The notes beneath the pieces are model-generated. The model saw only the letters and a list, made by a program, of their open reading frames with translations. It did not search any database and was not told the origin of the DNA. Below are positions 1 through 44,150 of a stretch of DNA of 64,000 bases, in pieces. The position numbers were made by a program, and so were the translations under genes. This DNA comes from an uncultured Alphaproteobacteria bacterium. Lineage in GTDB: Bacteria; Pseudomonadota; Alphaproteobacteria; RF32; CAG-239. Position 1 is the stretch's first letter; each line of letters starts with the position of its first letter. Location of the stretch: NCBI GenBank assembly GCA_944393695.1, contig CALYAY010000005.1, forward strand, positions 33,717-97,716, written 5' to 3'.

Positions 1-768
1 TATTTTGACCAAAATCTGGCGGATCTGGATCCGTCCAAGACCCTTTGGAAAACCCTGTGTCATGAAGGTGATCATGTGTGGGTGCGCGGACAGTATAAAC
101 ATGTAGTGGCTTATCTGAAAGACTTTTTGTTTAAACCGGAACAGGCGCAATGTCCGGTAAGCGCCTTATCGGGCGGGGAAAAACGCCGTTTGATGCTGGC
201 TTTGGCTCTGGCTCAGCCCTCAAACCTGCTGGTACTTGATGAACCGACCAATGATTTGGATATGGATACAATCGACCTGTTGCAGGAAGTTTTGGATGAA
301 TATCAGGGAACAGCCCTGATTGTCAGCCATGACCGAGATTTTCTCGACCGGGTGGTTACCTCCGTGATTTATATGCCGGGAGACGGCAGCGCCACCGAAT
401 ATCCGGGCGGATACAGCGATATGGAAGCAAAATTATCCGGCAGGAACGAAAAGTCCCCCAAGGTTAAGGAAAACAGAGGGAATCCAGCAAAAGACAAAGC
501 TCCGGAGAAAACTCAGGAAACGAGAAAAACGGGCAGATTAAGTTATAATCAACAGCGGCTGCTGGAGGTTTTGCCGGAACAGATTAAACAGCTTGAAAAA
601 GAAATTGCCGAACTGATTGAAACACTCAGCAATCCGGATTTATATACCCGGGATCCGGAAAAATTCGACCAGGCCAGTCAGGAACTGGCTGACAAGCGGC
701 AGAAAGTTGAAGATTGTGAGAATCAGTGGCTGGAAATCCAATTGCTTAAGGAAGATTTGGAAAAATAA
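1..768 (+). CDS. ABC-F family ATPase (Uup-like), C-terminal portion; 5' end outside window
   Basis: Frame is open from base 1. ABC signature LSGGEKRRL, Walker B LLVLDEPTNDLD, H-loop SHDR, and a C-terminal coiled-coil/charged tail typical of ABC-F proteins. Confidence 0.8.
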   Translation, partial: YFDQNLADLDPSKTLWKTLCHEGDHVWVRGQYKHVVAYLKDFLFKPEQAQCPVSALSGGEKRRLMLALALAQPSNLLVLDEPTNDLDMDTIDLLQEVLDEYQGTALIVSHDRDFLDRVVTSVIYMPGDGSATEYPGGYSDMEAKLSGRNEKSPKVKENRGNPAKDKAPEKTQETRKTGRLSYNQQRLLEVLPEQIKQLEKEIAELIETLSNPDLYTRDPEKFDQASQELADKRQKVEDCENQWLEIQLLKEDLEK

Positions 769-802
769 AGCCCGGAAATATCCGGGCTTGGCTGGTATGG
801 GA

Positions 803-2788
803 TTAGAATTCGATGACAGGATGAACTGATGCTGTTATAGTGTTTTTATTGGAATATCGATCAGTGCTATAACTGTAGCATATTCCGTACTTGCATACAG
901 ATGAGGCACCTGCAGTCCAGACAAATGTTCCCGTTTTTTCAGTTGATGTCCATATAGTTTGTCTAATATAATTGGAATTTCCGGCCACTTTGCGGATGAC
1001 TGATTGGATAAGCTCTTCATTTTCTGGATATGCCCGGAATACACCAGCTGCCGGCAGGCACCAATCGCCAGATTTTGTTCCTTCTGTTTTATATTCGTGT
1101 GCAGCCCAGGCTGCCGGGTAATCATTTTTATTACCCATAGAAACAATTATATTTGTGTTTTCGCAACTTTGAAAATCTGTTGAGGCAGCTTCATAGCTAT
1201 CTTTATTGGGTATACTCAAATCAATTTGTTCTGTATTTGCTGAAGACCATGTATAACTTGTTTTAAAACTTTCTACAGATATAGCCTGGGCGCAGTTTCC
1301 GTCATCGCTTTTATAAATGACGACGGCGATGGGGGTTTTACCAGAGACGACAGTGGAAGCACAGGTTCCGTCACTGTAAAGAATATCGCCGATATTGCAG
1401 TTTTTAGCATAACCGTTACACTTTCCCCATTCTGCTTTAGGTTCTTCTTTGCAAATGCCGTCTTTCCATTCATAACCGCTGGCACAATTACAGGATTTGT
1501 ATTTTCCGTCACAGGCTTCACCAGAGCCGCCGGCGTAACCGGTGCCGGTGCAGGTGTATTGGTAGTCGGCTGAGCATTGCTTTGTGCAGGTTTGAGAGCC
1601 TGAGTTCCAGTCGTAGCCGGACTGGCAGCCGGTTTTGCAATATTTACCGGAGCAGTCTTCATAGCGGCAGGTGAAGGGTGAGGGGCAGCTGGTGTAAGTG
1701 CATTCATAGGCGCACTGTTTGGTGCAGGTCTTGGTATTTTCATTCCAGTCGTAGCCGGGTTGGCAGCCGGTTTTATAATAAAGACCGGAACAATCCTCGT
1801 AGGAGCAGGTGAAGGGTGCGGGACAGTAGGTGAGGCTGCCGAGATTGGGGCAGGCTTTGCAGTTATCGTATTTTATCTGATTTCCTGATTGGCAGGATTT
1901 TGCACCGATTTCGGGCCCCATGCTGCCGCAATCCATATATCCGTTGCAAGGATTGGGTTTGATTTTATATTTTGTTTGTCCGTTGCAATCCACACAGGCT
2001 TCGCCGTCTTGAACGTAACCGTCGGGAATGGTGGTGTTGTCATAACCGGCGCAGGTGTTGCAGCAGGTGCCGTAAGTATTGTCGTACGAGCAACGGTCGG
2101 AGCTTAATTGCTGGCCGGTGCCGCAGGTATTTGTATAGTTTGGATTTAATTCTTTGCAGGCGCGTTCGGTATCTTTTTCACAGGAGGCATATTTCCCGTC
2201 ACAGTCTTCACCGACGCCATAGTAGGGGACTTCACAGGTGACGTAATTGCTTGGACAGGAAGAAACACATTTTTCGAAATAATTGCTGTCGTAGGGGCAG
2301 GTGTTGACGGGTTCCTGACCTTCGGGACATGAGGTTTGGGTATAGCCTTCCTGACAGCAGCGCTCGGCATTGTCGAGGTCATAATCATCACCTCCGGGAG
2401 GTACGCCGCCGTCATCCTCATCGGCATTATTCCCCGCAAACTCATTGCCGGAACAGTTGGTTGTGTCGGTCACGAAACAGGCGGCTGCGAGTTTTATTTT
2501 TTCACCCTTTTCTTCCCTCCCTAAAGAGTTAGGGAGGGTAAGGGAGGGTTTGAAACCCTCTCTGTCTCTCCCTGAGTTTTCAGGGAGAGTAAGTTCGGCA
2601 AAATCTTCAGGTGAAGACAAATGTCCGGCCGTGAGGTGTGAAGTGTGTGTGGAAACGTGTGATTTAACTCCGGCGGGAATAAAAGACGGGGAAGTGTCAA
2701 AATGATTAAAGTCAGCGCAACACCAATCAGCTCCGGCAATAAGGGACATGCAGGAAGCCGACAACATGAGAATAGTCTTATTCATCAT
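803..2788 (-). CDS. Cysteine-rich secreted protein with C-terminal DUF1566 (Lcl-C-like) domain
   Basis: N-terminal signal peptide. More than 80 Cys in repeated CxxGYDW / CSG modules. C-terminus (GKTPIAVVIY...YPAAWAAHEYKTEGTKSGDWCLPAAG) matches the DUF1566 pattern and is paralogous to 19299..20123. N-terminal half is paralogous to 20414..21508. Confidence 0.75.
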   Translation of the reverse strand: MMNKTILMLSASCMSLIAGADWCCADFNHFDTSPSFIPAGVKSHVSTHTSHLTAGHLSSPEDFAELTLPENSGRDREGFKPSLTLPNSLGREEKGEKIKLAAACFVTDTTNCSGNEFAGNNADEDDGGVPPGGDDYDLDNAERCCQEGYTQTSCPEGQEPVNTCPYDSNYFEKCVSSCPSNYVTCEVPYYGVGEDCDGKYASCEKDTERACKELNPNYTNTCGTGQQLSSDRCSYDNTYGTCCNTCAGYDNTTIPDGYVQDGEACVDCNGQTKYKIKPNPCNGYMDCGSMGPEIGAKSCQSGNQIKYDNCKACPNLGSLTYCPAPFTCSYEDCSGLYYKTGCQPGYDWNENTKTCTKQCAYECTYTSCPSPFTCRYEDCSGKYCKTGCQSGYDWNSGSQTCTKQCSADYQYTCTGTGYAGGSGEACDGKYKSCNCASGYEWKDGICKEEPKAEWGKCNGYAKNCNIGDILYSDGTCASTVVSGKTPIAVVIYKSDDGNCAQAISVESFKTSYTWSSANTEQIDLSIPNKDSYEAASTDFQSCENTNIIVSMGNKNDYPAAWAAHEYKTEGTKSGDWCLPAAGVFRAYPENEELIQSVIRKVAGNSNYIRQTIWTSTEKTGTFVWTAGASSVCKYGICYSYSTDRYSNKNTITASVHPVIEF

Positions 2789-2915
2789 AATAACACCTCT
2801 TAGTCTTAAATTACATTTGTCTTCACGAATCTAATGATAACAGAAATTGAAATGGTTGTAAATAGATAATTTGGCTATATGACGGGAAATCTGACTAGAA
2901 GAAAATAAGGCTGAC
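2789..2915 (-). promoter_or_regulatory. Conserved 5' leader/promoter region shared by the two Cys-rich paralogs (tgtcttcacgaatctaatgataacag ... atgacgggaaatc)
   Basis: Near-identical blocks at 2790..2910 and 21510..21610, immediately upstream of paralogous start codons. RBS aagaggtg precedes the ATG. Confidence 0.35.
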
Positions 2916-3232
2916 ATTTGACCCCTCCGGCTCCCCTTTCTAAAGGGGAGAGGTCAATAAGGAAGATCCCTTGACGTTCAGGCTGGCGCTGAACGAGGGA
3001 TGACAGTTTTTTGAAAATGAAACCCTCCCCAACCTTCTGGCTCCGTAAGTGTTGCCAAGGGGCAACACTAAGTCGTTGCGGTCACTCGGTTTGTAACGCT
3101 CATTTCGCGTTGCTGCCGCTAGCTTATGAGCTAACAAACTCTCGCCTGTCGTTGAAAATATCTCCACCGGAGATATTTTCTGCCTCCGGCCCTGAGTTTT
3201 CAGGGAGGGGGAAGACAAGAAGGAGGATGGCT
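2916..3232. repeat. Composite REP/RPE-like palindromic mosaic repeat cluster (copy A)
   Basis: Modules include gacccctccggctcccctttctaaaggggagagg, cttgacgttcaggctggcgctgaacgagggatgac, gaaaccctcccc and a 120-bp unit. Full composite recurs at 21812..22200. Partial copies at 20140..20410 (inverted) and 43730..44150. Confidence 0.8.
3066..3187. repeat. About 120-bp structured repeat unit, copy 1 (candidate sRNA/structured element)
   Basis: 117/120 identical to 22039..22160. Contains hairpins tgttgccaaggggcaaca, gtaacgctcatttcgcgttgc and tatctccaccggagata. Confidence 0.5.
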
Positions 3233-3262
3233 AAAAAATAAAGCCCCGTTTCCGGGGCTTGG
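3233..3262 (-). terminator. Rho-independent terminator downstream of pyk
   Basis: Hairpin agccccgtttccggggct followed by a T-run on the minus strand. Confidence 0.6.
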
Positions 3263-3267
3263 AAGTT

Positions 3268-4692
3268 TTAAGGAATATACACCGTATGGAGCATATTGGT
3301 ACGGCCCTTTTTGCCCAAGGGGAAACCGGCGGTAATGATAATATGGTCTCCGGATTTGGCAAAACCATTTTCAACCGCAATTTTTACGGCCGTTTCTTCA
3401 ATTTTATCAAAACTGGCAAAAGTCTGTTTGTTTACAAAACTCTTGGCTCCCCAAACAATACCCAGACGGCGGGCAACCTCAATATTCGGCGTAATGGCCA
3501 AAATCGGCAGATTGGGGCGTTCTCGGGCGGTTAAAAACGTGGTCAGACCGGATGAAGTATAAGTTATTATCGCGGCTACGTTTTTCAACACACCGGCAAT
3601 ATCGCTGGCGGCAAAGGTAATCGAATCGGATTCACCGACACAACAGGGGTGCAGACGCTGGCTGTCCATTAATTTGTAAAACAGAGGATCAGCTTCAACT
3701 TCGGTGATAATATCGCGCATCATGCGCACGGCTTCCACCGGATATTTACCGGCGGCCGACTCTGCAGAAAGCATAACCGTATCGGCTCCGTCATAAACAG
3801 CGGTGGCCACATCAGAGGCTTCCGCACGGGTGGGGCCGGGATTATTAATCATGGATTCAAGCATTTGCGTGGCAATAATGACCGGACGGCCGAGTTTGCG
3901 GCAGGCGGCTACGATTTTTTTCTGCAATACGGGAACCTGCTGTATCGGACATTCGACTCCCAAGTCGCCCCGGGCCACCATGATACCGTCGGAGAGTTTG
4001 ATAATCTCATCAAGCTCGGCAATGGCACTCGGTTTTTCCAGTTTGGAAATAATCCAGGCCTTGTCGCCTATCAGTTCGCGCGCATAGCGGACATCGTCGG
4101 CTTTTTGCACAAAAGATAAAGAAATCCAGTCAAAACCCAGTTTTAAGGCAAATTTCAAATCATTCTTGTCTTTTTCGGTAATGGCGGAAATCGGCAAAGT
4201 GATATTCGGCAGATTAACGCCTTTATGACTGGACAGAGGGCCGCCCACTTCAACCTTGGTCCAGATATGCGAATCATCATGTTTTTCGACCCGGAGACGG
4301 ATGTTTCCGTCATTTAACAGCAAAAGGTCTTTGGGTTTAACGGCCTTGAATATCTCGGGATGAGGCAGCGGAACCCGTTTTTCGTCACCGGGGTCTTTGT
4401 CCATATCCAACAAAAACTTCTGCCCTTCTTTGAGCATAACCTCACCGTCTTTAAATTCACCAACCCGCAGCTTCGGCCCCTGCATATCGGCAATCAGCGT
4501 AATATGCAGCCCTTTTTCTTTGGCCAGTTTGCGAACAATTTCATAACGTTCTTTATGTTCTTCGTGGGTTCCGTGGCTGAAATTAAAGCGGAAAGCATCG
4601 GCGCCGGAATCAATCAGCCGTTCAATCACTTCGCGTGAGGCTGAAGACGGTCCGATGGTTGCCAGAATGTGAGTTTTTGTTTTATGCGGCAT
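3268..4692 (-). CDS. pyk: Pyruvate kinase
   Basis: N-terminal sequence MPHKTKTHILATIGPSS...RFNFSHG and motifs throughout. ATG at 4692 with aaaggg RBS; ORF-track start at 4707 is TTG. Confidence 0.9.
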   Translation of the reverse strand: MPHKTKTHILATIGPSSASREVIERLIDSGADAFRFNFSHGTHEEHKERYEIVRKLAKEKGLHITLIADMQGPKLRVGEFKDGEVMLKEGQKFLLDMDKDPGDEKRVPLPHPEIFKAVKPKDLLLLNDGNIRLRVEKHDDSHIWTKVEVGGPLSSHKGVNLPNITLPISAITEKDKNDLKFALKLGFDWISLSFVQKADDVRYARELIGDKAWIISKLEKPSAIAELDEIIKLSDGIMVARGDLGVECPIQQVPVLQKKIVAACRKLGRPVIIATQMLESMINNPGPTRAEASDVATAVYDGADTVMLSAESAAGKYPVEAVRMMRDIITEVEADPLFYKLMDSQRLHPCCVGESDSITFAASDIAGVLKNVAAIITYTSSGLTTFLTARERPNLPILAITPNIEVARRLGIVWGAKSFVNKQTFASFDKIEETAVKIAVENGFAKSGDHIIITAGFPLGKKGRTNMLHTVYIP

Positions 4693-4856
4693 AATAAACC
4701 CTTTCAATAATTAATCTCTGCCGATATAGTAATCAAAAATAATTTAACAATATATTACATTATCCGATTAATCCCCTAAATTTATTGCTTGTAAAATAAA
4801 TTTGATTTTGTTAGATTGAGGGGCAATGTTAACTTGTTTTTTAAGGAGCTTTAACT

Positions 4857-5099
4857 ATGAGTGACGTTGGGGGAATCGACAGTTCAAGACTGGCATCTCT
4901 GATTGAAAGAATTGAACATCTGGAAGAGGAAAAAGCGGCTATTGCCTCGGATATACGTGATATTTTTGCCGAAGCAAAGTCTGCCGGATTTGACGTTAAA
5001 ATCATGCGGGCGGTTTTGAAACTGCGCAAGATGAACGCTGCCGACCGCGATGAGCAGGAAATTTTGCTGGAGACTTATCGCAAGGCTTTGGATTTGTAG
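4857..5099 (+). CDS. gapR: GapR-like DUF2312 nucleoid-associated protein
   Basis: 80 aa. LIERIEHLEEEK...DIFAEAKSAGFDVKIMRAVLKLRK closely matches Caulobacter GapR/DUF2312. RBS aaggag upstream. Confidence 0.75.
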   Translation: MSDVGGIDSSRLASLIERIEHLEEEKAAIASDIRDIFAEAKSAGFDVKIMRAVLKLRKMNAADRDEQEILLETYRKALDL

Positions 5100-5125
5100 T
5101 CTTTAATATCAAAAAAAAAAATCAA

Positions 5126-5149
5126 CCTCCGCCGGGCGGAGGTTTTTTG
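5126..5149 (+). terminator. Rho-independent terminator after gapR
   Basis: Hairpin cctccgcc-g-ggcggagg followed by tttttt. Confidence 0.7.
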
Positions 5150-5154
5150 TTATA

Positions 5155-5646
5155 TTATAATCCCCAGCGGACATAACGGGGAAGTTTCATATAATTACAG
5201 CCTTCGGCGCCGAATTCAGGACAATCGGGCGAAACATAACTCATTTCAATATCCAACAGGTGATAAACCCCATAGCTATGACGAACGGCCCGCAGATAAA
5301 GCGGCATCATGGAAGTTTGGACGGCAATGTCACTGTAGGTGCTCTCATCGGTTACGGGGTTGGGACTTTTCAAAAACGGCAGACAGAGCCAAATGTCCTT
5401 TTCTCCGGCAGCCGGCGTGCAAGACAATGCATGGTTCAGATGATCGGAAAAAATGGTATTGTATTTATGCTGAGAACCGGCAGCAGCTTTAATTTTTCCA
5501 ACGGTCAAATCACCGTCAAAAACATTTCCCGGGCGGGGGTTGGTGTTTTGCCAGGTGCCATACATATTGCCGCTGCAGAAAAACAAAATCAACATCCCCA
5601 CACCTAATACGCCGGCAAGTGCATAAACTATATATTTGTTTTTCAT
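5155..5646 (-). CDS. Hypothetical secreted/membrane-anchored protein
   Basis: 163-aa ORF. N-terminal hydrophobic segment MKNKYIVYALAGVLGVGMLILFF. No recognisable domain. Confidence 0.5.
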   Translation of the reverse strand: MKNKYIVYALAGVLGVGMLILFFCSGNMYGTWQNTNPRPGNVFDGDLTVGKIKAAAGSQHKYNTIFSDHLNHALSCTPAAGEKDIWLCLPFLKSPNPVTDESTYSDIAVQTSMMPLYLRAVRHSYGVYHLLDIEMSYVSPDCPEFGAEGCNYMKLPRYVRWGL

Positions 5647-6177: not shown

Positions 6178-6710
6178 TTTTGCAGCCTCCGCCGGGTATA
6201 GGCATAAAGGAATCCGGCACAGCCGGCCGCAATCACCGCCCAGATGGCTGAGAGATTAAGACACAACAATCCGCCCAGCGTCAAAGCAAAAACAATATAA
6301 CCGAAGATGCCGTTCACCCCTTTGCGCCACATATCAATCAAGGTGTTGAAAATAAGCGCGGCAACCACGATGCGAATCCCGGCAAAAGCATGTATCAGCC
6401 AGGTGTTGTGCATAAAGCGCAAAAGGATGGAGGCAATCAGGCAGATAATGATGAATGACGGCAGAATGATGGCAACTGTTGCCATAACGCCTCCGAACCA
6501 ACCGTGAAGTTTGTAGCCGATGAAAGTGGCCACGTTTACGGCAATAATGCCCGGCGTGCACTGCCCGACGGAATAATAGTCCATTAGCTCCTCATCACTG
6601 GCCCAGCGGTTGCGGCGGACGATTTCGTCCTGTAAAAGAGGCAGCATGGCATAGCCGCCGCCAAACGTAAAAAGACCGATCTTAAAAAAAGTCAAAAAAA
6701 GCCTGAACAT
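6174..6710 (-). CDS. chrA: Chromate transporter family protein (short-chain CHR, first half of pair)
   Basis: FKIGLFTFGGGYAMLPLLQ...GQCTPGI, the conserved CHR N-terminal motif. Confidence 0.75.
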   Translation of the reverse strand: MFRLFLTFFKIGLFTFGGGYAMLPLLQDEIVRRNRWASDEELMDYYSVGQCTPGIIAVNVATFIGYKLHGWFGGVMATVAIILPSFIIICLIASILLRFMHNTWLIHAFAGIRIVVAALIFNTLIDMWRKGVNGIFGYIVFALTLGGLLCLNLSAIWAVIAAGCAGFLYAYTRRRLQK

Positions 6711-6798
6711 TTTTATTGCTCCGGTGGTTGGTTGACAAACCGATGAGTATTATATTATTCATAAACTACCGAGAGTCAAAATAAATTCAGAGGTTAAA

Positions 6799-7905
6799 AT
6801 GATTATTTGCGTTCCCAAGGAAATCAGAACCGGAGAAACCCGGGTGGCCATCGTTCCCGATACAGTAAAAAAGCTGACCGGGCTGGGAATCGAGGTTCAA
6901 ATTGAAAAATCCGCAGGAAAAGCTGCCGGGTTTGATGATGAGGAATACCGGCAGTCCGGAGCGGTTATCGGCAAGACGGCAGACAAAATTTATGAGGAAG
7001 CAGATATTGTTTTGAAAATCAATGCGCCGGAAGAAAGCGAATTTTCCAGATTAAGACAAGGATGCGTCATTATTGCCAATTTCCGGGGCAAAGACTCTGC
7101 CGAATACCTGAAAAAAGCGGCTCAGAGAAAAGTCAGTTGTCTGGCACTTGACCGGCTGCCACGCTTATCCAAAACGCAAAGTATGGATATTTTATCGTCG
7201 CAAAGCAATCTGGCCGGGTATGAAGCCGTGATTACCGCCGTTAAAGCCCTGAACAAGGCAGTGCCGATGATGATGACCGCTGCCGGAACCATTGCCCCGG
7301 CCAAAGTATTGGTTCTGGGGACGGGAGTTGCCGGGCTGCAGGCCATTGCCACGGCCAAGCGGCTGGGGGCCCAGGTTTTTGCCTCGGATGTGCGCCCGCA
7401 GATGAAAGAACAAGCGGAATCCCTCGGGGCGCGTTTTTTGGAGACCGGCAACAACGAAACATTTGAAACAGACAGCGGTTATGCAAAGGAAACTTCCCGG
7501 GAATATCAGCTGGAACAACAAAGAATCGTGGCCGAACAGCTCAAGAAAACCGATATTGTGATAACAACGGCTCTGCTTCCCGGAAAAAGAGCACCCATTT
7601 TGATTACCAAGAAGATGATAGAAAACATGCCCAAAGGCTCGGTTATTGTGGATCTTGCGGCAGCCGAAGGCGGAAATACGGAAGGGTGCGAAGATCAAAA
7701 GACGAACGAATATGCCGGGGTCAGCATCATCGGCGCGGGAAATCCGGCAACTGGGGTTCCTTATTCGGCCAGTCAGATGTTTTCCCGTAATCTGTTTAAT
7801 TTTCTGCAGCCATTTTACCGGGAGGAAAGCAGAAGTTTTGAATTTGATTATTCGGACGAACTGATACGTGCCGTCTGCCTTTTGAAAAGAGGAGAAATGT
7901 TATGA
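6799..7905 (+). CDS. pntAA: NAD(P) transhydrogenase subunit alpha part 1
   Basis: Alanine-dehydrogenase/PNT fold. GTGVAGLQAIATAKRLGA Rossmann motif. Overlaps pntAB start. Confidence 0.9.
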   Translation: MIICVPKEIRTGETRVAIVPDTVKKLTGLGIEVQIEKSAGKAAGFDDEEYRQSGAVIGKTADKIYEEADIVLKINAPEESEFSRLRQGCVIIANFRGKDSAEYLKKAAQRKVSCLALDRLPRLSKTQSMDILSSQSNLAGYEAVITAVKALNKAVPMMMTAAGTIAPAKVLVLGTGVAGLQAIATAKRLGAQVFASDVRPQMKEQAESLGARFLETGNNETFETDSGYAKETSREYQLEQQRIVAEQLKKTDIVITTALLPGKRAPILITKKMIENMPKGSVIVDLAAAEGGNTEGCEDQKTNEYAGVSIIGAGNPATGVPYSASQMFSRNLFNFLQPFYREESRSFEFDYSDELIRAVCLLKRGEML

Positions 7906-8216
7906 CTGAAATGTGGTTTCTGGCAACAATTTTAATGCTGGCCGGATTTACCGGATATTTTGCGGTGAAAGGGGTTACACCGGCACTGCATTCGCCGTTA
8001 ATGAGCGTAACCAACGCCATTTCGGGCATTGTAATCATCGGAGCCTTAATTACGGCCGGCAGTGCTGAAACGCAGACCGTTTCTTTTCCGGGACTGGCCG
8101 CAATCTTTCTGGCGGCGGTTAATATTTTCGGCGGATTTGCCGTTTCTCAGAGAATGCTGCTGATGTTCAAGAAAAAAGAAAACACCCGTCCGGAACAAAA
8201 AGGGGAAAAACAATGA
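7902..8216 (+). CDS. pntAB: NAD(P) transhydrogenase subunit alpha part 2 (membrane)
   Basis: 104-aa integral membrane protein, translationally coupled between pntAA and pntB. Confidence 0.85.
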   Translation: MTEMWFLATILMLAGFTGYFAVKGVTPALHSPLMSVTNAISGIVIIGALITAGSAETQTVSFPGLAAIFLAAVNIFGGFAVSQRMLLMFKKKENTRPEQKGEKQ

Positions 8217-9574
8217 TTATGCATTTGATTTCCGCGGCATATCTGATTTCTGCCGCTTTGTTTATCCTTGCCATCCGGGGATTAGCCAGTCCGGAAACCG
8301 CCCGGCGGGGTAATGTTTTGGGAATTGCCGGAATGTTTCTGGCGATCGGGGCAACTCTGTTTTTGCCGCAGATACATAATTATGCACTTTTGCTTGCGTT
8401 TTTGGCTGCCGGCGCGGCAGCGGGCCTGATACCGGCATTTAAAGTCAGGATGACTGCCCTGCCCCAGATGATTGCCGCGTTTAACGGACTGGGCGGATTG
8501 GCGGCCGTTTTGATTTCCCTGGCGGATATTATCGCCGGTTCGGAAATGCGAATCGAAAATACTCTCAGTGTCATTATCGGGGCAGTGGCTTTTTCCGGTT
8601 CGGTTATCGCCTTTGCCAAACTGCAGCGTCTGCTTCCGGCCAAACCATTGGTATTTCCGGGACAACGGCTGCTTAATCTGGCATTGTTTCTGGCAGTGGC
8701 AGGATTGGGAATAAAATTTGTTGTCAGTCAGGAGGTGAACGCTTTTTATCTGTTAACCGGCGGCGCAATTGTTTTGGGATTTTTGCTGGTGCTGCCTATC
8801 GGCGGGGCCGATATGCCGGTGGTTATTGCGGTATTAAATGCCTATTCCGGCTGGGCAGCAGCGGGAATCGGATTTTCACTCAACAATGTTCTGCTGATTA
8901 TCGTGGGAACCATCGTGGGAGCCAGCGGCATGATTCTCTCTTATATTATGACCAAGGCTATGAACCGTTCGCTGAGCAGCGTTATGCTGGGCGGCTTCGG
9001 CCTTAATAAGGAGAAAGATGTATCCGCCAACGGGGAAGAAAGAACCGTCCGAACGGGAAATCCGGAAGATGCGGCTTTTATCATGAAAAATGCCAATAAG
9101 GTTATTATCGTTCCCGGTTACGGTATGGCGGCGGCTCAGGCCCAGCATATTTTGCGGACAATGGGTAATGATTTGCAGCAAAAATACGGTGTGGACGTGA
9201 AATATGCCATTCATCCGGTGGCCGGGCGCATGCCGGGGCATATGAACGTGTTGCTGGCCGAAGCCAATGTTCCTTATGAAGAAGTGTTTGAGTTGGAAGA
9301 TATTAACCGTGAATTTGAAACCGCCGATGTGGCTTATGTTATCGGAGCTAATGATGTGACCAATCCCCTGGCCAAAAGCGATACTACCTCCCCTATTTAC
9401 GGTATGCCGGTGTTGGAAGCGGGAAAGGCCAAAACCGTGTTTTTTGTAAAACGCTCACTGGGAACCGGTTATTCCGGCGTGGAGAATCCGCTGTTTTTTG
9501 CCGATAACGTGTTTATGCTGTACGGTGATGCCAAGAAAGTGACGGAAGAGATTGTTTCTGTTCTGGAAAGATGA
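8213..9574 (+). CDS. pntB: NAD(P) transhydrogenase subunit beta
   Basis: N-terminal TM helices. C-terminal NADP-binding domain with VIIVPGYGMAAAQAQH...GANDVTNP. Confidence 0.9.
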   Translation: MIMHLISAAYLISAALFILAIRGLASPETARRGNVLGIAGMFLAIGATLFLPQIHNYALLLAFLAAGAAAGLIPAFKVRMTALPQMIAAFNGLGGLAAVLISLADIIAGSEMRIENTLSVIIGAVAFSGSVIAFAKLQRLLPAKPLVFPGQRLLNLALFLAVAGLGIKFVVSQEVNAFYLLTGGAIVLGFLLVLPIGGADMPVVIAVLNAYSGWAAAGIGFSLNNVLLIIVGTIVGASGMILSYIMTKAMNRSLSSVMLGGFGLNKEKDVSANGEERTVRTGNPEDAAFIMKNANKVIIVPGYGMAAAQAQHILRTMGNDLQQKYGVDVKYAIHPVAGRMPGHMNVLLAEANVPYEEVFELEDINREFETADVAYVIGANDVTNPLAKSDTTSPIYGMPVLEAGKAKTVFFVKRSLGTGYSGVENPLFFADNVFMLYGDAKKVTEEIVSVLER

Positions 9575-9576
9575 AA

Positions 9577-9601
9577 GGGAAGCGTGAAGCTTCCCTTTTT
9601 T
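9577..9601 (+). terminator. Rho-independent terminator after pntB
   Basis: Hairpin gggaagc-gtgaa-gcttccc followed by a T-run. Confidence 0.7.
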
Positions 9602-9845
9602 AGTGGTAGTCCCGAACAGAGTTGAACTGTTTACTCAGCTACGTCAAAGCTACGTGATAACCGTTTCACTACGGGACTAGCGAAAACTTTTATTTATGTA
9701 GCGTATATTTTGGTTAAATGCAAGTCTTTTTTTCATATCCGGATAAATTTAGAGAATAATTTCCGTCTCTCCTTGTTTTTATTTATTGATATTTTATTTA
9801 TTTTTGTATAATATAGAAGAAAACAACCATGAAGGAGGATGAATA

Positions 9846-19298: not shown

Positions 19299-20123
19299 TT
19301 AGAATTCAAGGACGGGCCGGACCTCGTAGCGGTTAGGCTTATTGATGGTGTCGCTGCCGTACAACCCGTAGTCGTTGCTTAAATTCGAGTACCACGCGCT
19401 GCCGCCACGGTTCTCGGAAGACGACCAGAGGGAGGAACTTCTTCCTAACTGATCACCACCGGCCAATACAAACCCGGCATTAATCGCCGACATATTGTTT
19501 TTAATACTCGTCATAATACCGGCTGCCGGCAGACACCAATCCCCGGCATTAGTACCCTCTGTCTTATACTCATGTGCCGCCCAGGCAGCCGGATAAGTAC
19601 TCTTATTGCCAGCATTAGTAATAAGAATTGTATTGCTGCAACTCTTAACATCAGTTGCCGCCATCTCTGCACTACTCCAGTTGGTCAAAGTTGTAATATC
19701 CGTGCCGTATCCACTCCACGCATAATCTCCTATTTTTTTCAATGCCATGGCCTGACCACCGCCTGTTCCGTCAACATAAACCACCACACCAATCGGGGTT
19801 TTACCACTGATAACCTTACCATAAGAACAACTTATATCAGAATAAAAAATTGAACCTATGGCGCAATCTTTGGTATTACCACCTCCAATACCACCTTCTT
19901 CAATCACTTTTTTGATTTCCGTGATTTCGGTGGTGATTTCATTAATTTTATCTGCTAAGGTGCAGTTCCAGGCATTGCCGAAGGGACACTTAATCCCGCC
20001 TTCGCAGGATGATGAGCTTTCATAGCCCAAACTAGAACAACTCGGCGTCGGGATACATGCGGCATAAACACTTCCCGCACTTATCACCATTACCCCCACA
20101 CTCGCTAATAATATTTTCTTCAT
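19299..20123 (-). CDS. Secreted DUF1566 (Lcl-C-like) domain protein, paralog of C-terminus of 803..2788
   Basis: Signal peptide MKKILLASVGVMVISAGSVYAA. GKTPIGVVVYVD...YPAAWAAHEYKTEGTNAGDWCLPAAG shared with 803..2788. Nucleotide-level similarity is also visible. Confidence 0.7.
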   Translation of the reverse strand: MKKILLASVGVMVISAGSVYAACIPTPSCSSLGYESSSSCEGGIKCPFGNAWNCTLADKINEITTEITEIKKVIEEGGIGGGNTKDCAIGSIFYSDISCSYGKVISGKTPIGVVVYVDGTGGGQAMALKKIGDYAWSGYGTDITTLTNWSSAEMAATDVKSCSNTILITNAGNKSTYPAAWAAHEYKTEGTNAGDWCLPAAGIMTSIKNNMSAINAGFVLAGGDQLGRSSSLWSSSENRGGSAWYSNLSNDYGLYGSDTINKPNRYEVRPVLEF

Positions 20124-20139
20124 AACCTTTCTCCTTATA

Positions 20140-20410
20140 TTAGTTGTTAATAATATTTACCGTTCCCCTTTTTACCTCGCCCTTGAGGGGAGAGGTCGGA
20201 GCGTAAGCTCCGGGTGAGGGTGACAAAATAAACTGTCATCCCTCGTTCAGCGTCAGTCTGAACGTCAAGGGATCTTCCTTGCTGCTCTCTCCCCTTTTAA
20301 AAGGGGAGCCGGAGGGGTCAAATAGCGCCGCTTTATTCATCAGACTTGCATTCGCCATTCCACCCTCACCCTAACCCTCTCCCCTCAAGGGCGAGGGAAT
20401 AAAGAGCAAT
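20140..20410. repeat. REP/RPE-like palindromic mosaic repeat cluster (inverted orientation)
   Basis: Contains the reverse complement of unit 1 (gtcatccctcgttcagcg...aaaaggggagccggaggggtc) plus gggtgagggtg / ccctctcccctcaagggcgaggg palindromes. Confidence 0.8.
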
Positions 20411-20413
20411 CCC

Positions 20414-21508
20414 CTATCCGCCGCAGAAGTCACAATAATCCGCACAATTCGTCGCACAACCGGTGGCATACCATAAGCCCGAGCATTCTTCATACTGGCA
20501 TATGGTGCAGCTCGGACAGGTGGTGTATTCTCCCAAGTTCGGGCAGGCCTTACAATTGTCATACATGGTGGTTGTTCCCGACAAACAAGTCGAGGCTCCG
20601 GCTTCTCCGCCCATGGAGCCGCAGTCCATATATCCATCACACGGGTTGGGTTTTATCTTGTAATGTTCCTGACCGTCACAACCAAGGCAGCTCTCACCAT
20701 CCTGGACATAGCCGTCGGGAATACTCGTATTGTCGTATCCGGCACAAGTGTTGCAACAGGTGCCGTATAAACTGTCATAAGAACATCTGTCATCGCTTAA
20801 TTGTTGGCCGGTGCCGCATTCATCGACATAACCGGGGTTCAATTCCTGACAGGCGCGCTCAGTGTCTTTTTCACAAGAGGCATATTTCCCGTCGCAGGCC
20901 TCTCCCACGCCGTAATACGGAACTTCACAAGTGACATAATTTGAGGGACAGGAAGAAACACATTTTTCAAAATAAGTGCTGTCATAGGGGCAGGTGTTGG
21001 AAGGTTCCTGACCTTCGGGACAGGAGGTTTGGGTATATCCTTCCTGGCGGCAGCGTTCAGCATTGTCCAAATCATAATCATCGCCGTCTCCGGGACCGCC
21101 GGGAGCCCCGTGTCCGTCATCATCGGCATTATTGCCGCTAAACTCATTTCCCGAACAGGCTGAGGTATCGGTTACAAAACAGGTGGCTGCGAGTTGGGGA
21201 AGAGGGGTGTTGTGAAACCCTCCCCAGCCCCTCCCTAAGTTTTTAGGGAGGGGATAGAATAGATAGTTCCCTAAGTCTTTAGGGAGGGAATAGGATAGAT
21301 AGTTCCCTGAGTTTTCAGGGAGAGGATAAAAGGCAGAAGACAACAACATTTCTTCCGGGTGAGAGGTGTGTGTATAAGGTGTGTGGACAAATGTAACCGC
21401 CCCCGGAGTGTTGAGAGATGTTAGATTATGAATTGAAGCCAAACTGCCGCCGGGCATAAGAAACAGCCCGGAAACCGACAGCATTAATGCTTTGGATAAT
21501 TTCATCAT
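20414..21508 (-). CDS. Cysteine-rich secreted protein, paralog of N-terminal half of 803..2788
   Basis: Signal peptide. Near-identical central block (CFVTDT..CSGNEFSGNNADDD...NAERC.QEGYTQTSCPEGQEP.NTCPYDS.YFEKCVSSCPSNYVTCEVPYYGVGE.CDGKYASCEKDTERAC.ELNP). Lacks the DUF1566 domain. Confidence 0.7.
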   Translation of the reverse strand: MMKLSKALMLSVSGLFLMPGGSLASIHNLTSLNTPGAVTFVHTPYTHTSHPEEMLLSSAFYPLPENSGNYLSYSLPKDLGNYLFYPLPKNLGRGWGGFHNTPLPQLAATCFVTDTSACSGNEFSGNNADDDGHGAPGGPGDGDDYDLDNAERCRQEGYTQTSCPEGQEPSNTCPYDSTYFEKCVSSCPSNYVTCEVPYYGVGEACDGKYASCEKDTERACQELNPGYVDECGTGQQLSDDRCSYDSLYGTCCNTCAGYDNTSIPDGYVQDGESCLGCDGQEHYKIKPNPCDGYMDCGSMGGEAGASTCLSGTTTMYDNCKACPNLGEYTTCPSCTICQYEECSGLWYATGCATNCADYCDFCGG

Positions 21509-21610: not shown

Positions 21611-22330
21611 TTTTAAAACCCCCTCTAACTCCCCCTAAAATATTAGGGGGAGGATATAAGGATACTTGATTGTCACCCTCACCCGACACGTTGTGTCGAC
21701 CTCTCCCCTTAAGGGCGAGGTGAAGAAATGGATGACTTTTTTGCCTAGATCCTCGGGTTAAACCCGAGGGTGACAGGGAAAAGGGAGGCTGAGAAAAGAT
21801 AAGGCTGATATTTGACCCCTCCGGCTCCCCTTTCTAAAGGGGAGAGGGCAATAAGGAAGATCCCTTGACGTTCAGACTGGCGCTGAACGAGGGATGACAA
21901 TTTTTATTTGTTTGAATATGAAACCCTCCCCGACCCTCCCTAAGACTTTAGGGAGGGAGATATATGAGTAGAGATTTTAGAGGGATGACATTGCCATACC
22001 CCCTCCAACTTTCTGGCTCCTACTAAGCTCACTACGTTTGCTAAGTCGCTGCGGTCACTCAGTTTGTAACGCTCATTTCGCGTTGCTGCCGCTAGCTTAT
22101 GAGCTAACAAACTCTCGCCTGTCGTTGAAAATATCTCCACAGGAGATATTTTCTGCCTCCAGCCCTATAACTATAGGGGGAGGGTGGGTTTGGGGGCAAA
22201 GGCTTTAGGGGGGGAAAGTATAAGGAAAGTTTTTTTCACCCTCACCCTGACCCTCTCCCCTCAAGGGAGAGGGAAGAATACGGGGAGGTTTTTGGGAGGG
22301 GAATATGGGGTTTAGAAAGGGTGGTAAGGA
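21540..22330. repeat. Large REP/RPE-like palindromic mosaic repeat cluster (includes composite copy B)
   Basis: Stacked palindromes: ccccctaaaatattaggggg, cctcgggttaaacccgagg, tcaccctcaccc...ctctcccc.taagggcgagg, tccctccctaagactttagggaggga. Also contains unit 1 (21816..21903) and the 120-bp unit. Confidence 0.8.
22039..22160. repeat. About 120-bp structured repeat unit, copy 2
   Basis: 3 substitutions relative to 3066..3187. Flanking 30 bp (cttctggctcc...) is also shared. Confidence 0.5.
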
Positions 22331-27162: not shown

Positions 27163-28086
27163 ATGGCAGAAGAATTGGAAACAAAAGAAAATGACGACGA
27201 AGTTTTTGAAAAACTGCTGAATGAGTTTATTACAACGCAGCTGAAAGATGTGGACGACGTTGAAAAGAGTCAGCCGGAACCCCAACCACGGCAAGAAGAA
27301 GACGTGAGCATTTTTGCCAATCATGACGAGCAAAAAGCCGCCGATGACGAATGGGAAGGGGATGAGGAAGAGGAGGAAGAAGACAATCCGGAACTGGCCA
27401 TGCTGAAAAGCAATGAAAAAGCTTTATATAAAGCTTATGCCAATTTTCAGGAAGCTATCGACATGCTGGCAGAGGAAATCAAGGCCAAACCGGTAAAATT
27501 CAAAATTGTTCCGCAGTCTTTGTATCCGAACTATAAGCCCAGCACCGGTAAAATGATTGCCGAAGATATTTCGTCCGGCTGGGAGCTGCTGATTAAGGCC
27601 GAACCGGAAATGGTGGGAAGAATCTCGCCCAACGGCAGCGACGAAGAACTGCTGGCTTTTGCCGAAGAAAGCGAAAATGACGCCGTGCAATTTGCCTTAA
27701 TCTCATATGTGGAAATCCTGATTGAAATGGAAGGCTGCGAAATCGTTTATAAAGAGCGCCTGCTGAAATATGAGCAAAAACGCCTGGAAAGAGAAATTTA
27801 TGAAGAACATGAAAAAAGAATCAGGCGCATTAACCGCTATATTGAAGCCATCAAAGCCAAAAAATTTCCGGTGGATGCGGAAAAACTGGTGAAAAATTAT
27901 TTCAAAACCGCGGCCAAAGACGCCGAAGGGGCGTTTCAGGTGCTGACGCATAATCCGGCCATATTCTCACCGATAGAATTCAGCAAAATCAAGCCCCGGC
28001 TGTTCGGACTGCTGAAAGTCAAGCCCAGCGACGGCATTCGTATTAATCATTCCCTGGGAGAATTTTTGCGGAAATTAAAGGTTTAG
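27163..28086 (+). CDS. Acidic hypothetical protein (307 aa, Glu/Asp-rich, poly-E tract)
   Basis: EDVSIFANHDEQKAADDEWEGDEEEEEEDNPE. Predicted coiled-coil C-terminal half. RBS gaggaaaacactcATG. Confidence 0.6.
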   Translation: MAEELETKENDDEVFEKLLNEFITTQLKDVDDVEKSQPEPQPRQEEDVSIFANHDEQKAADDEWEGDEEEEEEDNPELAMLKSNEKALYKAYANFQEAIDMLAEEIKAKPVKFKIVPQSLYPNYKPSTGKMIAEDISSGWELLIKAEPEMVGRISPNGSDEELLAFAEESENDAVQFALISYVEILIEMEGCEIVYKERLLKYEQKRLEREIYEEHEKRIRRINRYIEAIKAKKFPVDAEKLVKNYFKTAAKDAEGAFQVLTHNPAIFSPIEFSKIKPRLFGLLKVKPSDGIRINHSLGEFLRKLKV

Positions 28087-28165
28087 ATATTTTTAGAAAA
28101 ATATGGACAAAATATGTTTTTAATGATAGAATGAGTTAAACAGCAAAAAACCGGCAGGTGGAAAG

Positions 28166-29620: not shown

Positions 29621-29621
29621 G

Positions 29622-30113
29622 ATGGCGAAATTCGGCAAAATTCTGAAGGCAATTATCGTGGGTTCGTTATGGACCTGCGTTTTGCTGTTTGCCGGCAACA
29701 AAATTACCCTGTTTTTCTGGAAATTTAATCTGCTCAGTGCTGCCGACTGGCAATTGATTGCCGGCTTTTGGAATCGGGGCGGCGTGATTAAAACCGCATC
29801 CGATTATCTGTTTGTATCCACCCTGTTTCTGATTCCGATTATATGGATTGGTGGCTGGAAAAGGCTGATGAAGGTGAAAATCGGGGCTTTGCTGCTGCGG
29901 CCTTTTGAGGCATACAGCGACTGGCAGGCAAAAAAATATGAAAACAATTCGCGAATCGTGTTGAAAAATATGGGAACAACTTCGGTAAAAGAAACACCGA
30001 AAGAAAAAATCAAATCCGACCTCAAAAAAATAGAAAAACAGATTGATAACAATAAAGAAACCGCTAAAATAAGAGAAAATATCGGCGAAAAAATCTCCCG
30101 TCTGAAAAAATAA
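29622..30113 (+). CDS. Two-TM membrane protein (163 aa), paralogous to N-terminus of 30172..31497
   Basis: TM1 - FWKFNLLSAADWQLIAGFW - TM2 (LFLIPIIWIGGW). Aligns with NWHFDIFQSAHWHHAWTLW - TM - LTFIPLWLSGW of the next protein. Confidence 0.6.
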   Translation: MAKFGKILKAIIVGSLWTCVLLFAGNKITLFFWKFNLLSAADWQLIAGFWNRGGVIKTASDYLFVSTLFLIPIIWIGGWKRLMKVKIGALLLRPFEAYSDWQAKKYENNSRIVLKNMGTTSVKETPKEKIKSDLKKIEKQIDNNKETAKIRENIGEKISRLKK

Positions 30114-30171
30114 ACAGTTATTAACCATATTTGTGTTATTATCGGAAAAAATTTATTAAGGATTAAATGAT

Positions 30172-31497: not shown

Positions 31498-31518
31498 GCC
31501 AGGTGAGAGGAAATTACG

Positions 31519-43729: not shown

Positions 43730-44150
43730 GGATTTTAAAACCCCCTCTAACTCCCCCTAATATTTTAGGGGGAGAGATATTAGGCTGGATTTGTTACCTG
43801 GGTCCTCGGGTTAAACCCGAGGATGACAGAGGGAGAAGGATGACAGTGTCTCTTTCCCACCTCTCCCTTGAGGGGAGAGGTCGCAGAACGGAGTGACGCG
43901 GGTGAGGGTGAGAGGGGTAAGGCAGGTATTTGCTCTCCCCGGCCCTCTCATCTATGAAAGGGTGACAAATTTGAAGATCCCCTGACGTTCAGGCTGGCGC
44001 TGAACGAGGGATGACAGTTTTTATTTGGATATGAAACCCTCCTACTCCCCCTAAATTTTTAGGGGGAGGGTGATTTGGAGGACTAAGACTTTAGGGGAGA
44101 GATATAGGGGAAACAAAAAAATCCCCTCGAGGGGAGGGGAAATTTTGTTA
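43730..44150. repeat. REP/RPE-like palindromic mosaic repeat cluster
   Basis: Shares ccccctaatattttaggggg, cctcgggttaaacccgagg, cctctcccttgaggggagagg, gggtgagggtgag, and the 3' half of unit 1 (gaagatcccctgacgttcaggctggcgctgaacgagggatgacag) with the other clusters. Confidence 0.8.

Follow-up and report, generated by a model that had tools for sequence, protein, structure and literature searches.

To our knowledge, the BoxC/TM motifs have been known for 30 years, and from more than 260 genomes, without any function or mechanism of spread having been accepted for them. Here we describe a dense set of related repeats in a 64-kb stretch of DNA (the window) from an uncultured gut alphaproteobacterium (contig CALYAY010000005.1, positions 33,717 to 97,716). 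BoxC, the PIT element and TMECO are names for one and the same repeat (Bachellier, Hoyne & Maher 2000, Holder et al. 2015; PMC4666352), of which there are 23 copies in E. coli MG1655 and 3610 across 262 proteobacterial genomes (PMC4666352). TMECO DNA forms a triplex in vitro that has not been detected in vivo, shows neither promoter nor terminator activity, has no mobility genes nearby, is associated with strain-variable loci and, in E. coli K-12, is reported always to be intergenic (PMC4666352).

In the window, structured repeats occupy four intergenic clusters and two patches inside open reading frames (ORFs). The reading that we favour, with a probability of roughly 60%, is that these form a lineage-specific mosaic of non-autonomous structured repeats, akin to the bacterial interspersed mosaic elements (BIMEs) of enterobacteria and remodelled by recombination. 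New here are the occurrence of several covarying triplex-type variants in one genome, with the second loop (loop 2) of the motif expanded to take hairpins or a 155-nt module; copies within ORFs that show in-frame copy-number variation; alleles that differ cassette by cassette among near-identical strains; and the 155-nt module itself, which we call B.

Organisation of the repeats

When the cluster sequences were compared with the whole window, related repeat sequence was found in six places only, the four clusters and the two in-ORF patches (Table 1); loci and contigs of other strains and species are labelled L005 to L050. The clusters fill four of the ~15 intergenic gaps of at least 150 nt and are built from three kinds of unit: triple-block units, plain hairpins and the ~155-nt module B. 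One triple block (a1) and one hairpin (a2) together make up a fixed composite, the A-unit. Clusters 1, 2 and 3 flank paralogous genes (803-2788, 20414-21508 and 19299-20123) that encode signal-peptide-bearing, cysteine-rich proteins, and cluster 4 sits between a helix-turn-helix (HTH) gene and trcR.

A first-pass annotation of this DNA had described six palindrome types combining in different orders into composite clusters. All six are present at or beside the places where it had put them, far above chance, and our unit maps bear out the variable order. Hairpin seeds with pure-pyrimidine arms number 81, against a mean of 1.9 and a maximum of 8 in 30 dinucleotide shuffles, and exact three-block (mirror) seeds number 10 against 0, an excess that excludes chance. 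The four intergenic clusters were correctly placed by that annotation, but the copies inside ORFs were overlooked. It had also reported the duplication of a ~300-bp composite, the A and B parts of which are indeed both repeated (95% identity between 2902-3011 and 21796-21905, and 97% between 3068-3193 and 22041-22166). There is, however, no single contiguous duplicate: A and B are adjacent in the first copy, whereas in the second an extra ~90 nt, comprising one more unit and a junction, lies between them. What had been called a 120-bp unit is the distinct module B, which is ~155 nt long and not palindromic.

Table 1. Repeat features of the window, with the host sites of module B in related loci
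Feature	Position or locus	Strand	Remarks
Intergenic cluster 1	2905-3215		window self-comparison
Intergenic cluster 2	20160-20402		window self-comparison
Intergenic cluster 3	21611-22282		window self-comparison
Intergenic cluster 4	43733-44110		window self-comparison
In-ORF patch: two head-to-head triple-block (TM-type) units	2497-2589	.	window self-comparison; in ORF 803-2788(-); translated ..LTLPENSGRDREGFKPSLTLPNSLGREEKGEK..; identical in L041/L042
In-ORF patch: one full triple-block unit and 36-nt tandem unit x3	21211-21339	.	window self-comparison; in ORF 20414-21508(-); translated ..YPLPENSGNYLSYSLPKDLGNYLFYPLPKNLGRGWGG..
A-unit	2905-3011	+	a1 CCCCTC-CGG-CTCCCC-tttctaaa-GGGGAG (2922-2950)
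a2 imperfect hairpin of first A-unit	2964-3006	+	gatCCCTtgaCGTTCAG-gctggcg-CTGAACGAGGGatgacag
Block 1 of triple-block unit hosting B	3019-3034	+	gaaaCCCTCCCCaac; L050 has that unit without B
Module B, copy 1 (~155 nt)	3035-3189	+	covariance-model score 175.6 bits
Hairpin and G-block of B's host triple-block unit	3190-3215	+	CCCTgagttttcAGGGAGGGGG
BoxC/TM-type unit, long form	20160-20226	-	16-nt inner hairpin cggagcgtaagctccg between duplex and third block
A-unit, inverted copy	20230-20324	-	between two halves of second paralogue
BoxC/TM unit	20358-20402	-	exact TMECO consensus (20363-20397)
Triple-block unit, type C	21611-21662	+	CCCCCTC-TAA-CTCCCCC-taaaatatta-GGGGGAG
BoxC/TM-type unit, long form	21664-21726	+	inner hairpin cgacacgttgtgtcg
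Hairpin E	21745-21776	+	gatCCTCGGGttaaaCCCGAGGgtgacag; ACTCCGG..CCGGAGT in that position in other strains
A-unit, copy 2	21796-21905	+	95% identical to 2902-3011
Triple-block unit, type F	21916-21972	+	CCCTCCCC-GA-CCCTCCC-taagacttta-GGGAGGG
Second host triple-block unit	21998-22185	+	CCCCCTCC..CCCTataactatAGGGGGAGGG; with B copy 2
Module B, copy 2	22011-22162	+	covariance-model score 168.7 bits
BoxC/TM unit	22234-22282	-	exact TMECO consensus (22239-22273)
Triple-block unit, type C, second copy	43733-43785	+	95% identical to 21611-21652
Hairpin E, second copy	43800-43829	+	followed by atgacag tail
BoxC/TM-type unit, long form	43846-43912	-	inner segment gcgtcactccgttctgcg
A'-unit	43913-44022	+	a2 hairpin kept; a1 changed to mirror variant CTCTCCC-CGG-CCCTCTC-atctat-GAaAGGG
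Triple-block unit, then degenerate unit	44027-44110	+	CCCTC-cta-CTCCCCC-taaattttta-GGGGGAG
Triple-block example	2556		CCCTCTC-TGT-CTCTCCC..GGGAGAG
Triple-block example	21218		CCCTCCCC-AG-CCCCTCCC..GGGAGGGG
Triple-block example	21619, 43741		CCCCCTC-TAA-CTCCCCC..GGGGGAG
Triple-block example	2922, 21816; inverted 20300		CCCCTC-CGG-CTCCCC..GGGGAG
Triple-block example	43932		CTCTCCC-CGG-CCCTCTC
Palindrome	21632, 43754, 44048		ccccctaa..ttaggggg
Palindrome	21751, 43804		cctcgggttaaacccgagg
Palindrome	20174-20226, 20358-20402, 21670-21722, 22237-22275, 43858-43912		gggtgagggtg and ccctctcccc..gggagaggg
Palindrome	2515, 21934		ccctccctaag..tttagggaggg
Palindrome (hairpin)	2964-3004, 21858-21898, 43975-44015; inverted 20235-20275		gacgttcag..ctgaacgagggatgac
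Palindrome	2920, 21814; inverted 20291-20324		gacccctccggctcccc..ggggag
B host-unit loop gagttttc	cluster 1, L027, L030		
B host-unit loop ataactat	cluster 3		
B host-unit loop aattcttt	L017, cluster 4		
B host hairpin CCTCCCCC-acctc-GGGGGAGG	L032-L035, L039		another species
B at tRNA-Val	L028		
B at tRNA-Gly-CCC	L029, L037, L038		
B at tRNA-Lys	L036		
B at tRNA-Pro	L040		

Triple-block units share sequence and design with BoxC

The triple-block design, seen in ~14 units, consists of a C-block, 2-3 nt, a mirror-image C-block, an A/T-rich loop and a complementary G-block. The third block, which is also C-rich, lies upstream of the C-rich arm of the hairpin and is the mirror image of that arm. 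In a scan of the window and all fetched loci, the asymmetric-arm units with a recognisable third block comprised 24 mirror and two direct cases, both of the latter being artefacts of register or alignment. Five distinct cores (CTCTCCC, CTCCCC, CCCCTCCC, CTCCCCC and CCCTCTC) keep the mirror symmetry. As mirror and inverted symmetry together are what an intrastrand triple helix requires, the units of the window are predicted to fold in this way. The presence of mirror-keeping variants in one genome is natural covariation evidence that the three-block geometry is either selected or generated by the underlying mechanism, and these variants make a ready panel for triplex assays.

The TMECO consensus, CCCTCNCCC-N3-6-GGGNGAGGG-N3-GGGNGAGGG, has two exact matches in the window against 0 expected. 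Three more copies fit it save for an insert of 15-19 nt in the N3 loop, which in two of the three is a small hairpin, and the loop-2 sequences TTA and CCG found here are those of TMECO types A and B. When cluster 3 was compared by blastn with plasmids and large replicons, matches ran only through the unit at 22232-22297, with 85-95% identity over ~40 nt in E. coli, Klebsiella, Enterobacter, Azospirillum, Sinorhizobium, Variovorax and others. Of the 5426 complete E. coli genomes, 4273 have matches to this unit, each in 1-6 places, among them the yihS-yihR spacer. Cluster 1 had no match in the plasmid collection, and Rfam covered neither a unit nor B, whether in the whole window at the gathering threshold or in 2850-3300, L036 and L032 in E-value mode. 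Judged by sequence and by design, the triple-block units belong to the BoxC/PIT/TMECO class of intrastrand-triplex motifs.

Clusters differ between near-identical strains

Strains for comparison were gathered by exact-protein look-ups, with up to ten others per cluster, and the flanking genes are nearly identical throughout. Those for cluster 1 were obtained via GapR; exact look-ups with pyruvate kinase and the 661-aa protein gave no record. At three of the four clusters the strains differ by the replacement, insertion or copy number of whole units. In cluster 1 the A-unit is present in all 11 sequences, and the stretch that follows it has at least five structural alleles between near-identical flanks: B; an intact triple block with a long BoxC unit (carrying either of two inner hairpins) and a hairpin E'; and further alleles that are short, have one more tandem unit or bear an additional insertion upstream of A. 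In cluster 3, B and its neighbouring unit are found in the window and L011-L015, whereas L007-L009 have a 24-nt segment in their place and L010 has a type-C unit there. Elsewhere in this cluster a type-C hairpin near the gene start is missing in L007-L010, hairpin E occurs in two alternating stem versions and the BoxC-type unit has loop 2 in a long or a short form. Cluster 4 has an extra 308-nt A'-B-A' in L017 and L021, an extra 56-nt triple-block unit in L020 and a 16-nt deletion in L019. The three strains with contigs running right across cluster 2 show no difference there.

Contigs end inside the cluster in seven of ten cases at cluster 3 and six of ten at cluster 4, which is what units present many times in the genome would lead one to expect. 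Eight of the ten contigs at cluster 1 read through it, and their ends fall in the 5' part of the 661-aa gene. The suggestion that the clusters are recombination hotspots agrees with the structural change between strains seen at the cluster sites. The active proliferation proposed along with it is not demonstrated: what differs among strains resembles the replacement of cassettes and changes of copy number through recombination, not clean transposition. The clusters break short-read assemblies of this gut lineage and mark hot spots of genome change, and the near-identical strains in public gut metagenomes allow turnover to be read directly, as cassette replacement, tandem accretion and in-frame expansion in genes for secreted proteins.

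This last form of variation concerns units that lie inside ORFs. Both paralogues have a good ribosome-binding site and a signal peptide, then triple-block and hairpin units and then the cysteine-rich domain, so placed that the units sit in a low-complexity linker behind the signal peptide and translate as ..LPENSG.., ..LPKDLG.. and ..LPKNLG... The reading frame through the repeats is open in all strains, with indels of 3 nt and one of a whole 36-nt unit, which is absent in frame from L010 (two tandem copies versus three). An open frame with indels of these sizes argues that the region is translated.

Proposed turnover by recombination

How might such mosaics be remodelled? The units are probably not moved singly by a transposase encoded nearby. 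Instead, short C/G blocks that they have in common, and junction motifs (..CCTTAT.., ..TGACA..), could serve as portable homology, whilst the hairpins or triplexes that they can form may stall or break replication; such folding of single strands as the DNA is copied would probably promote the exchange. The clusters would then swap, gain and lose whole units via gene conversion, unequal recombination or exchange, and slippage. Such a model fits the cassette-for-cassette replacement between fixed flanks, the tandem accretion of A'-B-A' and the in-frame 36-nt copy change; it also fits the 95-97% identity of the A and B repeats, given that the flanking paralogues are just 73% identical.

Several considerations weigh against this reading. 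Metagenome contigs can be chimeric at repeats, and some alleles (e.g. that of L037) are maybe assembly artefacts. The case for triplexes draws on sequence design and on the E. coli TMECO literature, in which they form in vitro and were not seen in vivo. Three of the four window clusters adjoin one paralogous family, and part of their similarity could come from paralogue-driven gene conversion instead of dispersal across the genome. Finally, turnover by recombination only leaves the first arrival of the repeats at unrelated loci, on a phage-like contig and in other species unexplained, and for this reason a trans-acting, structure-specific enzyme is possible.

Module B

Module B comprises a variable 5' hairpin, a conserved long hairpin, the single-stranded segment TCGCCTGTCGTTG and a hairpin made up of an A-tract, a 12-bp stem and a T-tract, and it ends in ..ttctgcctccgg. 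Further copies were reached by three routes: a spurious ORF at 2940-3218 (minus strand), used as a protein query, found six other spurious ORFs and through them new loci; eight more loci came from metagenome contigs scanned with a conserved 26-mer; and blastn against phage records gave MT837050. This last record, the phage label of which is unverified, encodes lipopolysaccharide (LPS)/sugar genes and a tRNA-Pro and is probably bacterial. In the retrieved loci a covariance model finds 17 strong copies (130-178 bits) and one weak copy (25 bits, L005).

The alignment of B holds fourteen distinct variants from several species (160 columns, GC 42-51%). RNAalifold folds it into a long hairpin with invariant GGTTTGT/ACAAAC and a covarying part (GCTCAT/ATGAGC, GCTTGT/ACAAGC, ACTGGCG/CGCCAGT, ACCGGCG/CGCCGGT), followed by the TCGCCTGTCGTTG segment, which is invariant, and a final hairpin whose stem covaries as well (ATATCTCC/GGAGATAT, AACTTCC/GGAAGTT, ATTCTCC/GGAGAAT). 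In this structure 99.4% of cells are paired and 10 pairs have changes on both sides. Compensatory cells number 45, against 14.4 +/- 3.2 in column shuffles (0/500 reach 45) and at most five when the partners are slid by 1-3 columns. Three G-U pairs, invariant or nearly so, occur on the given strand only. Even with E values of up to 10 admitted, no Rfam 15 family matched B, be it in the window or in L036 and L032.

Within the repeat clusters, B lies between block 1 and the hairpin of at least four different host triple-block units with differing loops. Two pairs of filled and empty sites are available: CCCCCTCC-aac[B]CCCTataactatAGGG in cluster 3 of the window versus CCCCCTCC-tactcc-CCCTataactatAGGG in L030, and CCCTCCCC-aac[B]CCCTgagttttcAGGG in cluster 1 versus CCCTCCC-tttccct-CCCTgagttttcAGGG in L050. 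B thus replaces loop 2 and 4-6 nt of block 2, with no target duplication. Triple-block units adjoin B in the other species too.

At tRNA genes the order is an intact tRNA with its trailer, a short linker, B and a direct repeat of 48-67 nt. Its start lies in the T-loop for Val and Lys, at the junction of T-stem and acceptor for Gly and in the anticodon loop for Pro; from there the repeat extends past the end of the tRNA into the trailer. At the tRNA-Pro site B points the other way, and in L029 two units of B and repeat stand in tandem. In every case the right end of B, ..ctgcctccag, is followed by CC(C/T), a run that opens either a hairpin arm or the T-stem/acceptor strand of a tRNA. We infer that B is a separate passenger with a history of its own. 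In L037, one of the tRNA-Gly contigs, the left flank is the tRNA-Gly flank of L038 and the right flank that of an L032-type locus, with a B copy at the join, which is either the product of recombination at B or a chimera of a low-coverage (2.3x) assembly.

What might B be? Two answers, which are not mutually exclusive, seem to us about equally likely, and both are tentative. Genomic islands that target tRNA genes have integrase-less derivatives (cis-mobilisable elements, CIMEs), and B may be the conserved, attP-proximal arm of miniature CIME-like elements at tRNA 3' ends, served by an integrase in trans, with the copies in triple-block units as secondary-site insertions. An intact tRNA followed by an element and a 3' repeat is reportedly the classical footprint of a tyrosine integrase (Williams 2002), and the flanking direct repeat of the tRNA 3' part is present at the Val (L028), Gly (L029, L038), Lys (L036) and Pro (L040) sites, where the right end of B always abuts it and, in L029, two units form a tandem array. 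Against this, no integrase was found in any B flank looked at, the triple-block sites lack a flanking direct repeat (4-6 nt being replaced there, not duplicated), and the stem covariation and conserved G-U pairs suggest selection on a folded strand, which would be unusual for protein-binding sites of the arm type.

The other answer is that B is the gene for a small non-coding RNA (sRNA) of ~110-155 nt ending in an intrinsic-terminator-like hairpin, which would have become multi-copy by riding on the recombining clusters and on duplications next to tRNA genes. A fold conserved in 14 variants from several species, with its 10 compensatory pairs, invariant G-U pairs confined to the given strand and a final hairpin with A-tract, 12-bp stem and U-tract all point this way. 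The left flanks all differ, however, so that there is no conserved upstream promoter, and no Rfam family matches. Moreover, a simple terminator scan did not call the 3' hairpin, and 'terminator-like' is therefore a description only.

A bolder proposal, which we think unlikely, is that B is an undescribed, gene-less mobile element of ~155 nt with a folded core, inserting at structured DNA 5' of a C-rich hairpin arm. If true, it would target loop 2 in triplex-type repeats as well as T-loops or anticodon loops in redundant 3' fragments of tRNAs, with the triplex-type clusters as landing pads, and either a trans-acting recombinase would read the folded module or B would encode a guide-like RNA. 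In any case, B links triplex repeats with tRNA-end duplications, making it a candidate for a new sRNA or a new miniature integrative element; it is the unexplained part of the system and could prove new in kind.

Several other identities considered for B were rejected or left open. For a palindrome-associated transposable element (PATE) of the IS200/IS605 type, the subterminal hairpins do not resemble one another, that at the 5' end lacks conservation and no target motif is conserved beyond GGG/AGG; for IS91, the GTTC target is present at one site only. The targets have no common 11-14-nt identity of the kind that an IS110 bridge-RNA mini-element would need, and such an element would leave the 48-67-nt repeats unexplained. 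The ends are direct, not inverted, repeats, unlike those of a retron msr/msd, and there is no conserved ORF for a type I toxin peptide. A tmRNA and a tRNA intron were also considered.

Plain hairpins and the question of a REP transposase

The a2 hairpin has the pattern gatCCCT-tga-CGTTCAG-7nt-CTGAACG-AGGGatgacag and hairpin E the pattern gatCCTCGGG-ttaaa-CCCGAGGgtgacag, the two having GAT...(A/G)TGACAG flanks in common. In other strains the E position holds ACTCCGG-cctga/tttaa-CCGGAGT, a stem of altered sequence with its pairing kept, and the purine block of the a1 variant in the A'-unit, GAaAGGG in the window, reads GAGAGGG. The first-pass annotation had termed the repeats REP/RPE-like, after the repetitive extragenic palindromic sequences (REPs) and the Rickettsia palindromic elements (RPEs). 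The label holds in part only: the a2 and E hairpins recall REPs and the in-frame genic copies recall RPEs, but most units are BoxC-type triple blocks.

It is conceivable, if improbable, that the repeats are a family of REPs, or of REP doublets (REPINs), mobilised by a REP-associated tyrosine transposase (RAYT), in which case a HUH Y1 enzyme, encoded by a single-copy gene elsewhere in the genome, would bind the hairpins in single-stranded form and cut them. Both a2 and E are imperfect palindromes of 30-40 nt with a conserved CTGTCAT/ATGACAG flank comparable to the REP tetranucleotide GTAG, different stems are found at one position with pairing preserved, and units are extragenic and clustered. 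That flank is not a GTAG head, though, and these hairpins are the minority, most units being triple-block mirror motifs. A search for a RAYT, proposed in the first-pass annotation, came up empty: Pfam identified no Y1 transposase (PF01797), other transposase or integrase among the ~69 ORFs of the window, nor in the flanks of other copies (L005, L028, L033-L036, L040; the mobility-gene survey spans ~200 kb in all). Inverted REPIN doublets of a2 or E were seen neither in the window nor in related loci, and no mobility genes were found by the E. coli copies of TMECO (Holder et al. 2015; PMC4666352). Membership of the REP/RAYT system is not supported.

Dispersal to other loci and species

The first-pass annotation spoke of a genome-wide family. 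Copies do occur at other loci and in other species, so that the repeats are more than a local duplication and are not confined to one locus or species. The A+B composite recurs with 95% identity in L027, where it follows a class II aminoacyl-tRNA synthetase gene, and has been rearranged in L030/L031, where an RF-1 gene and the promoter of a paralogue enclose it. The a2 pattern has one match in 185,579 representative genomes and 0 in the JGI metagenomes, numbers to be read with the under-representation of repeats in metagenome-assembled genomes (MAGs) in mind. The single match (L005, JAZQTW010000048.1) is a full A-unit on an AT-richer (36% GC) alphaproteobacterial MAG contig. Positions 1-8000 of L005 encode a podovirus-type portal (PF12236) and a head-fibre protein, which places the A-unit, at 6680-6790, in phage-like DNA; a weak B-like element lies at 808-963. 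The patterns for a2, a1 and B gave 0 matches in viral contigs (IMG/VR).

A purely local origin, in which a segmental duplication of the region with the cysteine-rich protein genes left the repeats behind and gene conversion made them uniform, is very unlikely: clusters 1, 2 and 3 do flank the paralogues 803-2788 and 19299-21508, with their common promoter, and the copies in L028 and L030/L031 likewise lie upstream of such a promoter, but cluster 4, at the HTH/TrcR genes, has no link with the paralogues, units of the BoxC type occur across the proteobacteria, and copies at unrelated loci (L027, the tRNA sites of L029/L036/L038/L040, L032-L035/L039 and the phage-like contig of another species) largely refute the idea.

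Genomic context

The window is alphaproteobacterial, with a GC content of ~46% and TrcR (PF06242), GapR and 6S RNA as host markers. Proteins fully identical to its RuvB, TrcR and GapR are encoded on dozens of contigs in metagenome assemblies from ENA and Logan, and the contigs returned by the B-pattern scan bear the label human gut metagenome. The cysteine-rich paralogues are 73-80% identical at the DNA level, and no Pfam family matched 803-2788, 19299-20123 or 20414-21508. The second paralogue copy consists of two ORFs, each with a signal peptide of its own and with cluster 2 between the halves. Among strains the N-termini and parts of the body of these proteins are mosaically different (L007 versus L008 versus the window). 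The paralogues 803-2788 and 19299-21508 have a conserved promoter in common, and most of the repeat clusters found (window, L028, L030/L031) lie just upstream of this promoter.

A number of other features were noted. The only Rfam match close to the repeats, at 3226-3292 (-) beside cluster 1, is a weak one to the alphaproteobacterial sRNA family mmgR/suhB, with 25.6 bits against a gathering score of 41 and E = 0.003; it coincides with the terminator region of the pyruvate kinase gene, on its downstream side. The pntAA-pntAB-pntB transhydrogenase operon (6799-9678) is apparently missing in L042 and L046, the adjacent tRNA possibly with it; these strains have a chromate transporter gene, ~410 nt and then the 257-aa ORF found at 9846 in the window. 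Four consecutive ORFs without a Pfam family (307, 484, 163 and 441 aa), followed by a TraG/VirD4 type IV secretion coupling protein (PF02534, PF12696), occupy 27163-33726, which may be the remnant of a conjugative element. From 60000 to 64000 the GC content falls to 36-39%, with a BRO-N protein at 61412-62086, Fic/DOC and winged HTH (wHTH) at 62694-63671 and a gap of 607 nt; this region may be an island or prophage remnant. The 6S RNA gene (51546-51702, 69 bits), which adjoins zapA, and a single tRNA gene (9607-9678) are ordinary landmarks.

Two loci that carry B at tRNA genes have further features of their own. In L028, a low-GC (40%) block at 1-5263, beside tRNA-Val and the B copy, encodes an SNF2-like helicase, PAPS reductase/DUF3440 and ParB_N proteins and has the look of an islet for defence or modification. 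At its opposite end this contig has the gene start MMKLSKALML.. found at 21508 in the window, so in the L028 strain that gene, or a close paralogue, has a wholly different upstream region. In L029, unrelated direct and inverted repeats (..gtacttctatgtac.., ..taaaagtgcgctct..) lie at 3980-4380 (minus strand), between the SHMT gene and tRNA-Gly.

Comparison with known repeat families

The Rhizobium-specific intergenic mosaic elements (RIMEs) and Sm-repeats of rhizobia are alphaproteobacterial intergenic mosaics built from palindromes, the RIMEs being fixed composites of ~100 nt. No sequence likeness to them was detected in the repeats described here, save for the BoxC-type matches in replicons of Sinorhizobium and Azospirillum. 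To the tRNA islands and CIMEs the likeness is that of B only, with its intact tRNA, element, 48-67-nt direct repeat of the tRNA 3' part and tandem accretion; but the 'element' is just 155-250 nt, has no genes, shows structure covariation in its conserved part and is also found in triple-block repeats without direct repeats. With the REP/REPIN-RAYT systems, a2 and E share the character of short imperfect hairpins that are extragenic, multi-copy and conserved in their flank, whereas no RAYT was found in the window, the GTAG-type head and REPIN doublets are absent, and hairpins are in the minority.

Like the RPEs, the repeats include structured units within coding genes that keep the reading frame (2497-2589 and 21211-21339). 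There is no sequence relation, however, the host is a gut alphaproteobacterium with 46% GC and the units are BoxC-like; furthermore, RPEs are single palindromes of 100-150 nt, whereas the in-ORF units here are triple blocks or hairpins of 36-45 nt. The RPEs are thus a functional analogy only.

The closest relation is to BoxC/TMECO, with which the repeats share the three-block design (and, for five units, an essentially identical sequence), the inverted pairing of units, the strain-variable loci and the lack of a mobility gene nearby. They differ in that this one genome holds at least five further sequence variants, all mirror-symmetric; in that loop 1 is longer (8-10 nt, A/T-rich and self-pairing) and loop 2 may hold a hairpin of 15-19 nt or the 155-nt module B; in that units are packed in mosaics with other repeat types; and in that copies lie inside ORFs too, whereas those of E. 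coli K-12 are reported always to be intergenic. In their larger organisation they resemble the BIMEs, which are likewise intergenic clusters drawing on a small vocabulary of structured units and linkers in varied order and orientation. The vocabulary here is without the Y/Z PU-type REPs and the host is alphaproteobacterial: the clusters work like BIME-type mosaics but are not members of the BIME family.

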